Origin: a virus
Reading direction: 5' to 3' (one strand)
DNA: 64,000 bases
Virus genome (UHGV): UHGV-2113617
The notes beneath the pieces were generated by a model that saw nothing but the letters and a program-made list of their open reading frames with translations, was not told the DNA's origin and ran no database searches. Made by a program: the position numbers and the translations under genes. Shown in pieces: positions 1 through 64,000 of this stretch (positions are counted from its first letter, which is position 1; each line of letters starts with the position of its first letter).

Positions 1-161
1 CCTGGATTCACAATTACTAATACTGAACGAGGAGTTTCGGTAATAACACGAACCGATGTTTCTGGAAATCGTTCAGAAACCTTATTTACCAATTCCTGAG
101 CAAATAGTTTAACTTTTTCTTGGAATTCTTTAACAGTAATTGGTTTTTCACTTAGCAGCAT
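1..161 (-). CDS. hypothetical protein, 3-prime end cut by window edge
   Basis: ATG at 161..159 preceded by GAGGAAA; frame stays open to position 1. Confidence 0.35.
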   Translation of the reverse strand, partial: MLLSEKPITVKEFQEKVKLFAQELVNKVSERFPETSVRVITETPRSVLVIVNP

Positions 162-222
162 TTTGTTTTCCTCATTTGTTTGGTAGAGCTATAATATCAC
201 AACTCTACCGTAAAGTAAACTA

Positions 223-498
223 TTAAATTGCTTTGAATTCTGCTGTCTGCGATTCAAAACGAATATCGCCTTTGATGACTAGCTCAGCATCAAGACCGAA
301 TACAACAATGATATGCGCGGAACCTGGATACAGCGTAATGGCAACAGAATCCACCTGGTCTGGAAGCAAAGTGTTCAATACATGAGTCACTTGAGCGTGG
401 ATTCGAAGCTCAGCTGCGTTATCAAGTTTTTCAAACATATTATTAGCGATAATTTGGCTAAACACTACTTCTACGATTTTAGAGTAAGTCGGAAACAT
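223..498 (-). CDS. hypothetical protein (cd-pseT interval)
   Basis: Track ORF 223..528; internal ATG at 498 has a GAGGT SD, so start trimmed. Confidence 0.4.
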   Translation of the reverse strand: MFPTYSKIVEVVFSQIIANNMFEKLDNAAELRIHAQVTHVLNTLLPDQVDSVAITLYPGSAHIIVVFGLDAELVIKGDIRFESQTAEFKAI

Positions 499-562
499 AT
501 TTACCTCACATAATTTTCTTCGAGCCAATTAATAATAGTCCAAGTTTCATGGTGCCAAGCCA

Positions 563-1468
563 TTAAAAATCTCCCGAGGCGACTTGCCAGCATTCAACAC
601 CGATGCGGCGCCACATTTCAACTACTTGAGTTCGGTCATCAATAGCTAATTTCACATCAAAATGTGGTGCGATGTGTTTCCAGAAAATTTCTTCTTTAAC
701 CACATCGTCTTTACGGGTATCGCCTTGTTCGCGCTGACATTGCATAACTAATGGAACGCCAGCAATATCCTCAACCCATTTACGGGTCATACGATAATAT
801 TTCGTTGGGTCTTCTTTAGTTCCACTTTCACGGCCTGAAACGACTACAATGTAATATCCTTGCTTATCGTACATCTTAGCTAGTTCAACGACCATTGGAT
901 TAATAATATCGGTATCGCATTTTTCAAGGTCATAAGGACCACGACCATTCATTTTTGCTAACGTGCCGTCAACATCAAAAATAACTGCTTTTGGTTTACC
1001 AGGAGTCCCATTATATACTGGAAGACCGAGATATTCCCGCATGCTTTTATACATTGAGCGTAAAACATCAATTGGTACTGCTTTAGTTCCACGTTTTGAG
1101 TTACGTTTAACCAATTCAGTCCAAGGAACATCGAACACTTGATATTCGACTTGGTGTCCCCACTGCTTAGCATATTCTTCCCAGGCAAGACGACGTTCAG
1201 GATTCAAATTAGTGTCAGAAATAATAACACCCTTCGTTCCGTCTTGGCAGAGAATCATATGTGCCGCATCGTATTGCATATAAGTCACGATACTTTCTTT
1301 CTTCTTGGTGTATTTGTACTCATCACGTTCTTCGTGTGCCATAACAGACTGGCGATAATCATCACGATTGATATTATAAAACCCGGAATTCTTAGCAATA
1401 AATTCACGAGCCCAAGTGCTCTTACCAGAACCAGGACAGCCAATAGTTAAAATAATCTTTTTCATCAT
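563..1468 (-). CDS. pseT: polynucleotide 5-kinase / 3-phosphatase
   Basis: 301 aa; N-terminal P-loop [10 protein letters not shown]-terminal HAD-type phosphatase motif DVDGT; near-identical to recalled T4 PseT. Confidence 0.95.
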
Positions 1469-1767
1469 TTAATTCCTAAGAAAACTTCAAGAATACGAAT
1501 ATTATGCTCACGCCGTCCTTTGTACAATTCAGCTGTTGATTGATTCACTGATTTACTCCGAACATTGGATGAAATAAATTTTATCATGTGATTTTTAAGC
1601 TGATACATATCAAGCCCACGAGCTTTCGCTTCTTTTCGCAGGGCTTTACCAGCATCATCTAAAGCTTTAGCATGTTCAATGTCTTCGCTAATGCTTGATG
1701 CACTTTCATGACATACATCAATGTAACGGTCTGAGCATTCAATATAACGTTCTAGAAGAGTTTTCAT
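1465..1767 (-). CDS. hypothetical protein (pseT.1-like)
   Basis: 100 aa ORF; its TGA stop overlaps the pseT ATG (ATGA). Confidence 0.5.
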
Positions 1768-63639: not shown

Positions 63640-63697
63640 AGATATTCCTTAGTTTATAGCCCGAGTTATTAGGCTCTTGATATATTATACTCCAAAT

Positions 63698-63715
63698 AAG
63701 GGGCCGAAGCCCCTT
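63698..63715 (-). promoter_or_regulatory. CUUCGG hairpin upstream of gene 43
   Basis: GGGGC-UUCG-GCCCC followed by GGAGTATAATAT; may belong to the gene 43 leader or be a terminator for the upstream gene. Confidence 0.4.
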
Positions 63716-63717
63716 GC

Positions 63718-63981
63718 TTAAATTAATACCATTTGTCGGTGAAAAATTGTCAATCCATCTGCATTAATTGACTTAACCACTGCGGTAAAGTGTTTTTGTT
63801 CTGGGTGAACTAATTTTTGAAATTCTACCTGAAATTTTAGTTGGAGATTTTCTGGTAAATCAAAAAGTGTTTCTGTTGCAGAAAGATTATATTTTTCTTT
63901 AAGAGACGCCATGTATTCTTGCGGGGTTATAGCAGTCATATTAATTACCAATCGTATATTTTGGAACGAGTTTCCATTCAT
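63718..63981 (-). CDS. hypothetical protein, 5-prime end possibly beyond window
   Basis: 87 aa ORF; frame stays open upstream of ATG 63981 to the window edge; does not match recalled RegA. Confidence 0.35.
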   Translation of the reverse strand: MNGNSFQNIRLVINMTAITPQEYMASLKEKYNLSATETLFDLPENLQLKFQVEFQKLVHPEQKHFTAVVKSINADGLTIFHRQMVLI

Positions 63982-64000
63982 GTTTTTGTTTAAAAGAAAT

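Follow-up and report, generated by a model that had tools for sequence, protein, structure and literature searches.

The analyzed window, a single stretch of 64 kb of DNA, is a Tequatrovirus segment of a T4-like coliphage and follows the T4 map from cd.2 to rIIB and from rIIA to gene 43/regA. It is very probably a natural mosaic within this genus, built chiefly by general recombination and cassette turnover, with homing endonucleases as one part of the process. T-even phages are well known as a patchwork of a conserved core and variable cassettes, and the window is a further example of this textbook plasticity, in which known cassettes are combined anew. The features discussed below are collected in Table 1.

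Table 1. Positions of features in the 64-kb window, with strand and the basis of each assignment.
Feature	Position	Strand	Basis or remark
nrdB, uninterrupted, 392 aa	4814..5992	-	95.9% aa identity to T2 NrdB
Empty nrdA-nrdB spacer, 51 nt	5993..6043		no mobE/nrdB.1 in the slot
nrdA C-terminal piece, 329 aa, with 28-aa acidic leader MNIDYEFVDEFYEDDEYTTIEVIENKGE	6044..7033	-	Pfam RNR barrel positions 219-523
MobE-like HNH homing endonuclease gene within nrdA, 236 aa	7023..7733	-	HNH motif, Pfam, Aeh1 MobE
Predicted 13-bp RNA hairpin over the start codon of the MobE-like gene, Shine-Dalgarno in the loop	7724..7759	-	folding
nrdA N-terminal piece, 477 aa, with 28-aa basic tail QQTRLIKIKKSDVAKFYEANPGGIIQSK	7779..9212	-	Pfam, T4 alignment
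td gene: exon 1 (11098-11646), group I intron (10082-11097), exon 2 (9770-10081)	9770..11646	-
I-TevI, 245 aa, intact	10229..10966	-	Pfam, 96.7% aa identity to T4 and T6
segG, free-standing endonuclease gene between genes 32 and 59	15230..15859	-	97.5% nt and 98.6% aa identity to T4
Genes 34-36 (proximal fiber and hinge), T6/SF2-1-like block	18127..23872	+	informative sites, identity per 500 nt
gp37 (23881-26973) and gp38 adhesin (27007-27789), T6-type host-range cassette	23881..27789	+
Gene 39, unsplit, 606 aa	39426..41246	-	99.7% aa identity to T2
Block near-identical to Shigella phage SF2-1	40468..44331		5 mismatches in 3864 nt
srh/mrh to soc, T4-like block	50500..52155	-	informative sites
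82-nt soc-56 spacer (empty segF slot) and gene 56	52156..52756	-	segF and T2-type soc-56 ORFs missing
uvsX, T2/T6 allele	56864..58045	-	99.7% aa identity to T2/T6
beta-glucosyl-HMC-alpha-glucosyltransferase, 281 aa, replacing T4 segA and b-gt	58123..58968	-	Pfam TAGT
Gene 42	58959-59699		94.7% nt identity to T4
ORF 43.1 cassette between regA and gene 43	63718..63939	-	missing from the six panel genomes

Identity and block structure of the window

On nucleotide level, the window is 94.3-94.5% identical to T4, T2, and T6 over 85-94% of its length, and the closest of the six panel genomes is Shigella phage SF2-1 (PQ571308) with 96.3% identity over 94% of the window. The top records of a database search were T-even phages of Escherichia, Shigella, Yersinia, and Salmonella, and no phage record reached ≥99% identity over any third of the window. 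Out of 116 T4 gene queries in this span, 94 match and do so in T4 order (nested endonuclease ORFs counted); gene order and identity both place the window among the T-even phages. The gene set predicted to provide HMC-DNA and its glucosylation, consisting of gene 42 and a homolog of ba-gt, is present with both members. A tRNA scan of the window found none, as expected for that map region, and Rfam at gathering thresholds returned zero matches over the whole window.

The first-pass annotation had described a mosaic of T4-type and T2/T6-type cassettes on a conserved backbone. Mosaic and backbone both proved to be real, with 99.2% of the window being alignable to at least one of the six relatives and 79.6% to all six. 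Informative sites (317 shared with T4, 373 with T2, and 454 with T6) are very unevenly distributed along the window; they are strongly clustered (chi2 = 617.5, df 62, p = 1.7e-92) and fall into 423 runs, compared with 755 ± 15 in permutations. In terms of identity per 500 nt, the nearest relative switches along the window. Uniform near-identity to one reference genome, the observation that the annotation had set against its own reading, was found for no record, and the signal switches beyond chance. Recombination was read from sequence patterns, and since the mosaic panel comprises only six genomes, block borders and donors are approximate.

The clearest exchange in the window, and by its sequence a recent one, is with an SF2-1-like phage: the near-identical block of 3.9 kb is flanked by sequence with about 2-4 mismatches per 100 nt to SF2-1. 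The stretch around mrh and soc is T4-like, with 105 informative sites over 50001-54000 shared with T4 vs 12 with T2 and 14 with T6, and mrh.1, mrh.2, and soc show 97.5-97.7% identity to T4. Over 18001-24000, covering the genes of the proximal fiber and hinge, 210 sites group with T6 vs 23 with T4 and 28 with T2, and a further block at 1-3 kb of the window is T2-like. The mixture seen by the annotation stands, while its division into T4-type and T2/T6-type cassettes is too simple, because the nrdA cassette, gene 56, gp37, and ORF 43.1 match none of these three phages. The gp56 protein is a non-T4, non-T2 allele with 72.7% amino acid identity to T4, 70.3% to T2, and 97.7% to SF2-1. The stretch 63722-63940, absent from the panel, was considered as a novelty and rejected, being the common ORF 43.1, which is found in 258 phage records over ≥80% of the query and is 100% identical in CrRp10, WL-3, and BECP11.

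In the slot between uvsX and gene 42, the annotated resemblance to T2/T6 was borne out by a protein with 97.2% amino acid identity to the T2 and 96.8% to the T6 ORF of the same slot, carrying the name beta-glucosyl-HMC-alpha-glucosyltransferase in the annotations of e11/2 and SF2-1. UvsX, said to be close to but not identical with its T4 counterpart, indeed shares 90.3% of its residues with T4 and is the allele of T2/T6. For the tail-fiber tip, likewise assigned to a T2/T6-like type, the assignment holds for T6 and not for T2. The gp38 protein belongs to an adhesin family (Pfam GP38, E = 1.2e-71, and Gp38_N), has no match to T4 gp38, and is 98.8% identical to SF2-1, 91% to T6, and 52% to T2; for gp37, the values are 75% to T6, 25% to T4, and 23% to T2. 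With 94.2% as the best full-length DNA match of gp37/gp38 in the phage collection, the window holds a T6-like adhesin allele without any closer full-length database match, which bears on host range. A stretch of the adjoining fiber region missing from all six panel genomes (23359-23668) corresponds to a divergent part of gene 36.

We regard the window as a natural T-even segment in which a syntenic backbone would have taken up alleles and cassettes from a pool shared by T-even phages that infect the same cells. Its patchwork would chiefly result from general homologous recombination among relatives, visible as blocks that switch their nearest relative among T2, T6, T4, and SF2-1, and optional cassettes, among them dam, the glucosyltransferase, the fiber tip, and numerous small ORFs, would have been gained, lost, or replaced. 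Homing endonuclease genes form one class of these cassettes; they probably promote some local exchange and are unlikely to be the main engine of the mosaic.

Homing endonuclease slots and the origin of the mosaic

The span contains eight endonuclease slots, all of them polymorphic among the seven genomes compared. In the window, I-TevI, SegG, and a MobE-like gene fill three of them, and the other five, those of I-TevIII, mobE, mobA, segF, and segA, are vacant; every presence and absence claimed in the first-pass annotation was recovered in the sequence. The td intron with its intact I-TevI is 1016 nt long and occupies the same insertion site as in T4, exon 1 ending in CTTGGGT. In silico splicing yields an intact Td of 286 aa with 94.8% identity to T2 Td (271/286) and 93.0% to T4 Td (266/286). 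The Rfam model Intron_gpI scores 34.5 bits (E = 4e-6) on this intron, under the gathering score of 50; because the td gene with its intron aligns to T4 at 100% coverage and 93.6% nucleotide identity, and the first 40 nt of the intron are identical, the group I catalytic core is very probably intact. I-TevI carries the Pfam domains GIY-YIG (PF01541), I-TevI_ZnF (PF22635), and I-TevI_DNA-bd (PF20987). As T6 also possesses the td intron with I-TevI, this element is not a T4-only marker.

The SegG-like ORF is one residue shorter than T4 SegG and has the same neighbors, and segG is missing from T2, T6, SF2-1, and 236Ecol005PP. Pfam assigned no family to it, GIY-YIG included, at E < 0.001; despite this result, its predicted membership is safe because it is near-identical to T4 SegG. 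The absences were equally consistent. The T4 nrdB intron and I-TevIII have no match in the window, nrdB being a single ORF. The gene 60 bypass cassette is absent from gene 39, which likewise forms a single ORF without mobA and 60.1; T4 60.1 has no match in the window, and the only match of a T4 mobA fragment lies in the HNH gene at 7605-7697, away from the gene 39 slot. The spacer between soc and 56 holds no ORF. A tblastn of the window found no I-TevIII, segF, segA, b-gt, T4-type gp38, T2-type soc.1/soc.2 (labels used here for the T2-type soc-56 ORFs), or dam. No extra endonucleases are hidden among the non-T4 ORFs, all of which fall into PHROG families, these being of unknown function except for a distant MotB-like relative and a DUF7418 protein.

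Beyond these features, the annotation had called the mosaicism homing-endonuclease-driven. Most allele switches would then have arisen when endonucleases cut the DNA of co-infecting relatives that lack them and the breaks were repaired with co-conversion, which we judge rather unlikely as the prevailing process. Marker exclusion by T4 endonucleases is established between T2 and T4 (Edgell, Gibb & Belfort 2010, PMC2988022), and for other phages, the existence of "HEG islands" has been suggested (PMC10448857). Within the window, the polymorphism of all eight slots speaks for some role of the endonucleases, and variable 250-nt bins are more common within 1 kb of a slot (0.53 vs 0.29); in this six-genome panel, however, the enrichment is not significant (circular-shift P = 0.076) and is inflated because the endonuclease genes themselves are counted. 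Next to the empty segA slot, at the 3' end of uvsX (57501-58000), identity to T4 falls to 76.8% on nucleotide level, whereas T2/T6 stay at 96-97%, and the gene 56 allele switches exactly at the empty segF slot. Together with the near-slot enrichment, these two sites make a larger endonuclease role conceivable. On the other hand, only about 8 of 28 variable stretches are located at endonuclease slots; about 20 lack an endonuclease, among them the fiber tip, ORF 43.1, the site of the missing dam, and the small ORFs without known function, and the borders of the T6-like (18-24 kb), T2-like (1-3 kb), and SF2-1-identical blocks have no endonuclease in the window. A co-conversion signature was not found either. 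Gene 32 and the td exons share no tract with carriers of the same endonuclease and are no closer to carriers than to non-carriers: gene 32 beside segG is nearer to segG-less T2 (97.5%) than to T4 (94.8-95.2%), and the td exons resemble the intron-less SF2-1 at least as much as the intron-bearing T4/T6. The flanks of the nrdA cassette have no insert-linked SNPs as a tract, the mismatch profile is negative as well, and over 5000-9800 one site alone (6788) separates four carriers of the nrdA insert from four non-carriers. Moreover, the endonuclease genes, at 95.7% and 97.5% nucleotide identity, have diverged from T4 to about the same extent as the backbone. The annotation's last claim is partly supported: the endonucleases contribute part of the mosaic, and a role as its main driver is unlikely.

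Sharp switches of the nearest relative and a 3.9-kb near-identical block could also come from an artefact of co-assembly, and the window could in principle be a chimera of at least two T-even phages from a mixed sample. We consider this very improbable: the nearest relative changes at many scales among at least five different phages, every backbone gene checked is complete and follows T4 order, and the longest exact match to any panel genome outside the SF2-1-like block is 582 nt. Finished isolate genomes (e11/2, 236Ecol005PP, and SF2-1) each carry their own similar combination of cassettes. Still less credible is a lineage of its own that split vertically from T4, T2, and T6 and, without recombining with relatives, gained or lost cassettes in place. 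The nearly equal identity to all three phages would fit such a history, but the near-identical block lies in a background of 96-98% identity, and the clustering of the informative sites, strong for all three groupings, refutes a purely vertical lineage. General recombination with cassette turnover is the reading we retain for the window as a whole.

The split nrdA and its MobE-like insert

The split nrdA with an HNH gene was confirmed, and this split occurs in none of T4, T2, and T6. According to Pfam, the upstream piece comprises the ATP-cone, the RNR all-alpha domain, and barrel positions 1-221; its homology to T4 NrdA stops at NDVNS, and before the tail it ends with ...NLCCEIAIPTNDVNS. The alignment of the downstream piece to T4 NrdA restarts at IGLCTL, this piece reading VGLCTL after its leader with the cysteine as residue 32 (Cys31 in Aeh1). 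The split point lies in the active-site loop between the equivalents of Cys439 and Cys462. Both pieces have their own start and stop, the C-terminal piece being in a different reading frame, and the MobE-like ORF overlaps its start by 11 nt. Rejoining by an intron or intein is ruled out by the stop after the N-terminal piece and the out-of-frame position of the C-terminal one, and an intron in nrdA is further excluded by Rfam, which gave no intron hit to 6900-7900 at a cutoff as permissive as E ≤ 10. GC content drops to 32.6% in the AT-rich insert, compared with 37-39% in the nrdA body, and the hairpin predicted at the endonuclease start has an MFE of -15.3 kcal/mol (z = -4.1), with none of 200 shuffles being as stable.

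The MobE-like protein has an HH...N...H motif that is invariant with Aeh1 and T4 MobE as well as a Pfam I-HmuI NUMOD-like domain. Among the matches listed, Aeh1 MobE is its best full-length match outside Tequatrovirus, with 44.9% identity over 96% of the length (E = 4e-46). The two extensions of the NrdA pieces carry opposite charge, the N-terminal piece ending in a tail with a computed net charge of +4 (pI 10.0) and the C-terminal piece beginning with a leader of -10 (pI 4.1); the Aeh1 tails computed alike give pI 9.9 and 4.1, while Crona et al. stated 10.4 and 3.8 (PMC3045599). The tails are homologous to those of Aeh1 NrdA-a and NrdA-b, as judged from Smith-Waterman scores of 42 and 67 vs shuffle means of 19.8 and 27.6 (shuffle P = 2e-4 for the basic tail and < 5e-5 for the acidic leader). 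The last ~10 residues of the leader resemble the native loop of the unsplit Dhakavirus NrdA. In comparison with HY01, selective constraint is evident: both NrdA bodies and both tails change almost only synonymously, with a single non-synonymous codon change in the tails and 24 in the HNH gene, which is 12% diverged.

Considering this layout, the split nrdA is, on the evidence of its sequence, an Aeh1-type "genes-in-pieces" cassette that is already deposited and mentioned in the literature. The same cassette is found in 35 deposited Tequatrovirus genomes, usually annotated as no more than a "homing endonuclease" and two nrdA ORFs. The nrdA-a/mobE/nrdA-b ribonucleotide reductase of Aeh1 was reportedly described by Friedrich in 2007. 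By analogy with phage Aeh1, the two NrdA pieces would be translated separately and reassemble into an active reductase, probably helped by the basic C-terminal tail and the acidic N-terminal leader that the cassette encodes. The biochemistry of the Aeh1 "genes-in-pieces" reductase and its tails has been described, and the tails had no database match at that time (Crona et al. 2011, PMC3045599). A 2022 preprint states, as unpublished, that several other phages carry such insertions with conserved tails.

How the cassette came to be in both genera can be read in two ways, and we are evenly divided on the first of them. The unit of basic tail, stop, mobE, and acidic leader may be a self-contained mobile module that brings its own reassembly tails and moved between Cinqassovirus and Tequatrovirus; the homologous and conserved tails in the window and in Aeh1 fit a module traveling as a unit. 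If true, such a module could enter the essential nrdA reading frame without an intron or intein. Alternatively, an old insertion in nrdA may have been inherited vertically and repeatedly lost by recombination with unsplit alleles. The divergence of the cassette is similar to that of the NrdA body, MobE being 45% and the tails roughly 40-65% (aligned segments) identical vs 52-58% for the body. In either case, the solution of Aeh1, biochemically studied in a single Aeromonas phage, exists with homologous tails in easily handled coliphages, so that a tail-driven reassembly of the active site would be directly testable in E. coli.

Comparison with T-even phages and Aeh1

With T4, T2, and T6 (NC_000866, AP018813, AP018814), the window has in common the gene order from cd.2 to gene 43 and the kinds of optional cassettes in the same slots, yet it is identical to none of the three. 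It shares segG and the mrh-soc block with T4, the unsplit gene 39, uvsX, ba-gt, and the intron-less nrdB with T2/T6, and the fiber genes with T6. The nrdA cassette, its gene 56 allele, and ORF 43.1 are missing from all three, and dam is missing from the 56-61 slot of the window. The likeness to SF2-1 extends to gp38, gp56, and the nearly identical block; in contrast to the window, SF2-1 is devoid of the nrdA cassette, segG, and the td intron, its nrdA-nrdB spacer is occupied by an endonuclease gene, and it additionally has gene 61.2 and two small ORFs located between soc and 56.

Compared with the T4 endonuclease set (Edgell, Gibb & Belfort 2010, PMC2988022), I-TevI and SegG are in their T4 positions, and the empty slots are those of I-TevIII, mobE, mobA, segF, and segA; no co-conversion tract with T4 as donor surrounds the occupied slots of the window. 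Between nrdA and nrdB, T4 carries mobE/nrdB.1, and T6 and SF2-1 carry different endonuclease genes.

Aeh1 belongs to Cinqassovirus and the window to Tequatrovirus, the two MobE proteins are only 44.9% identical, and the hairpins differ in sequence, that of the window covering the AUG and not the Shine-Dalgarno as in Aeh1. Their nrdA cassettes nevertheless agree in the split loop, in an HNH MobE homolog encoded between the two pieces, whose gene runs into the start of the downstream one, in the basic upstream tail and the acidic downstream leader, in the AT-rich insert, and in a hairpin over the translation start of the endonuclease.

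Mosaic composition of the window

When the window was compared in thirds with 50,697 phage records by Megablast, each third matched roughly a thousand of them, for the most part Escherichia, Shigella, Yersinia, and Klebsiella phages, and no record reached 99% over any third. The top records changed by third, namely Salmonella phage BCPSen_003 and Yersinia phage PST (95%), Shigella phage SF2-1 (97.2%), and REP4, SH-1, and WL-3 (96-97%). T4 genes mapped onto the window in T4 order from cd.2 to rIIB, and then from rIIA through gene 43 and the end of regA. Over the aligned 85%, 86%, and 94% of the window, nucleotide identity to T4, T2, and T6 was 94.4%, 94.5%, and 94.3%, respectively; it amounted to 95.0%, 94.0%, and 96.3% for the phages 236Ecol005PP, e11/2, and SF2-1, respectively. 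All six references aligned to 79.6% of the window and at least one of them to 99.2%. The uniform near-identity to one reference that would speak against a mosaic was thus not found, and the window joins the established T-even mosaic kind as a new member, closely matched throughout by no deposited genome.

The first-pass annotation had described a mosaic on a conserved backbone, which the distribution of informative sites supports. Among the columns with T4, T2, and T6 all aligned, in which the window base equals exactly one of them and the other two agree together, 317 sites grouped the window with T4, 373 with T2, and 454 with T6. These were spread very unevenly (chi2 = 617.5, df 62, p = 1.7e-92) and formed 423 runs versus 755 ± 15 in permutations. 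The window resembles T2 in the first 3 kb, T6 in genes 34-36, and T4 from srh/mrh to soc. A block of 3.86 kb differs from SF2-1 at only 5 positions, compared with 2-4 per 100 nt in its flanks; it looks like a very recent exchange, and neither of its borders carries an endonuclease gene. Based on the shares aligned to all and to at least one reference and on the switches of nearest relative, the window combines in a new way alleles and cassettes that are all in circulation within the genus.

The fibre tip had been called T2/T6-like, of which only the T6 part holds: gp38, an adhesin (Pfam GP38), is 91% identical to T6 and only 52% to T2, and gp37 shows 75% identity with T6 versus about 25% with T4 and T2, therefore the tip is T6-like rather than T2-like. 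For the distal fibre genes, no phage record provided a full-length match above 94.2%. Within gene 36 (fibre hinge), 310 nt have no blastn match in the six panel genomes, with the rest of the gene aligning; this stretch is probably a divergent allele segment. As proposed, the uvsX-42 slot holds a T2/T6-like glucosyltransferase; its 281 aa match the protein of T2/T6 at 97% identity, and the counterpart in e11/2 and SF2-1 is annotated as beta-glucosyl-HMC-alpha-glucosyltransferase. UvsX was likewise rightly described as near to T4 without being identical (90.3%; 99.7% to T2/T6). Established knowledge already covers T-even mosaic architecture, the T4 endonuclease list, the adhesin and glucosyltransferase of the T2/T6 type, and gene 39 as a single ORF in T2/T6, and nothing in the window departs from known biology.

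Coordinates of features in the window and in related phage records
Feature	Record	Position	Strand	Description
End of NrdA leader	window	6950-6979		TIEVIENKGE, last ~10 codons
HNH gene	window	7023-7733		236 aa
HNH gene	HY01	2524-3234		
Predicted hairpin	window	7724-7759	-	13 bp, z = -4.1
Start of td exon 2	window	10052-10081		first 30 nt
td intron	window	10082-11097		1016 nt
td intron	e11/2	10303-11608		locus holding the intron of 445 nt, truncated I-TevI
td intron	236Ecol005PP	10582-11696		locus holding the 254-nt ORF-less form
Gene 36 segment	window	23359-23668		
Block near-identical to SF2-1	window	40468-44331		N-terminal half of gene 39, 39.1-39.2 region, goF, cef, motB, motB.1-like ORF
Gene 56 allele	window	52238-52756		dCTPase
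dam slot	window	52757-53026		between genes 56 and 61 in T4/T2
'DNA adenine methylase' gene	236Ecol005PP	6021-6812		between nrdB and nrdA, the T4 mobE slot
ORF 43.1	window	63718-63939	-	about 73 aa, then GC-rich hairpin; between regA and gene 43

Introns, endonuclease slots, and other cassettes

The cassettes listed in the first-pass annotation as present or absent were checked item by item, and its observation is therefore confirmed with small corrections. The td intron lies at the T4 insertion site, with exon 1 ending in CTTGGGT and the joined exons encoding a 286-aa thymidylate synthase. Its I-TevI is intact, with 245 aa, 96.7% identity to the T4 and T6 versions, and the GIY-YIG, zinc-finger, and DNA-binding domains; the Rfam match to the intron core (34.5 bits) stays below the Rfam threshold. 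Full-length introns with intact I-TevI occur in the window, T4, and T6, reduced forms in e11/2 and 236Ecol005PP, and none in T2 and SF2-1; these states among close relatives resemble steps in the decay and loss of the endonuclease. In alleles without the intron, the start of exon 2 belongs to the I-TevI recognition region; in the window it differs from T4 at 7 positions with the same encoded amino acids.

The SegG-like ORF is 98.6% identical to T4 SegG. No intron interrupts nrdB, a single 392-aa ORF, and the 51-nt nrdA-nrdB spacer is devoid of mobE. The mobA/60.1/gene-60 bypass cassette is absent because gene 39 is a single ORF (99.7% identical to T2). The 82-nt gap between soc and 56 contains no segF and lacks the two small ORFs found there in T2. 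No tblastn match was obtained anywhere in the window for segA, b-gt, T4-type gp38, dam, 61.2, or I-TevIII.

The dam slot lacks dam, as in T6 and SF2-1; this absence, together with the position of the methylase gene in 236Ecol005PP, argues that dam behaves as a movable cassette. ORF 43.1, which immediately precedes the region where translation of gene 43 starts, is absent from the six panel genomes and found in 258 phage records.

Contribution of homing endonucleases

The mosaicism had been attributed to homing endonucleases as driver, which stands only in part. The seven T4 slots of the span and the nrdA site are all polymorphic among the seven genomes compared, three being occupied and five empty in the window; other ORFs that T4 lacks encode small proteins that belong to known phage families and have no nuclease domain. 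Two local patterns fit the known behavior of T4 endonucleases in marker exclusion (PMC2988022). The T4 uvsX 3' end beside segA is an outlier (76.8% versus 96-97% for T2/T6), and the switch from the T4-like soc block to the gene 56 allele (protein identity 72.7% to T4, 70.3% to T2, and 97.7% to SF2-1) falls exactly at the empty segF slot.

However, when any stretch with an identity spread of 8 points or more, or with presence/absence among the references, is counted as variable, about 8 of 28 lie at endonuclease slots. The variable share of 250-nt bins was 0.53 within 1 kb of a slot versus 0.29, an enrichment with a circular-shift P of 0.076, the endonuclease genes themselves being counted in. 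Nor are carrier flanks closer to each other: the td exons show no greater closeness to intron carriers, gene 32, adjoining segG, is closer to the segG-less T2 than to T4, and only one site in 4.8 kb flanking the nrdA insert separates four carriers from four non-carriers. The nucleotide identities to T4 of I-TevI (95.7%) and segG (97.5%) are near the backbone value. We conclude that endonucleases contribute, with general recombination and cassette turnover explaining most of the pattern.

The split nrdA and its counterpart in Aeh1

The split nrdA with an HNH gene was correctly recognized. Homology to the unsplit T4 NrdA ends after ...IAIPTNDVNS and restarts at (I/V)GLCTL, in the loop between the equivalents of Cys439 and Cys462 of E. 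coli NrdA. The upstream piece runs on into a 28-aa basic tail (pI 10.0) and a stop; the HNH gene starts 45 nt further on and overlaps by 11 nt the downstream piece, which opens with a 28-aa acidic leader (pI 4.1). The insert is AT-rich relative to nrdA. No intron signal was found at the split with Rfam, and an intein joining the pieces is ruled out by the reading frames. The leader end aligns with the native loop of the unsplit NrdA of Dhakavirus (JS10, Bp7) and is similar to DENGE of E. coli; a short stretch of the donor's nrdA may be part of the cassette.

In comparison with phage HY01, the NrdA bodies and tails are 1-5% diverged, almost only by synonymous change, versus 12.1% with 24 amino-acid changes for the HNH gene. 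This fits tails needed for reductase function, and the endonuclease evolves with far greater freedom than the tails introduced with it. Databases already contain the cassette, in 35 Tequatrovirus records (e.g., e11/2, HY01, UFV-AREG1, and fPS-90).

The same arrangement of nrdA piece, HNH gene, and nrdA piece is known from Aeromonas phage Aeh1, where an enzyme with full activity forms from the two pieces and tail deletion lowers activity about 2000-fold (PMC3045599). A 2022 preprint refers, as unpublished data, to 'Aeh1 and several others' with such insertions and conserved tails. Outside Tequatrovirus, the best full-length match to the HNH protein among those listed is Aeh1 MobE (44.9% identity, E = 4e-46). 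The window tails align to those of Aeh1 (LIKIKKSDVAKF with LFKVKKSEVDKF; EFYEDDEYTTIEV with EVYEDEEYTTVEI) with the same charge pattern and with scores that composition-preserving shuffles rarely or never reached (P = 2e-4 and < 5e-5). The MobE match and these alignments beyond shuffles show that the correspondence is homologous and more than an analogy. A predicted hairpin covers the start of the MobE-like gene, where the start codon and the first codons pair with sequence lying upstream and the Shine-Dalgarno sequence falls in the loop; HY01, the one relative compared, is identical in this spacer. In Aeh1, a hairpin of different sequence at the same position is known to restrict the translation of MobE. 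As the most useful lead, coliphages offer a split reductase of the Aeh1 type, homologous tails included, for experimental work.
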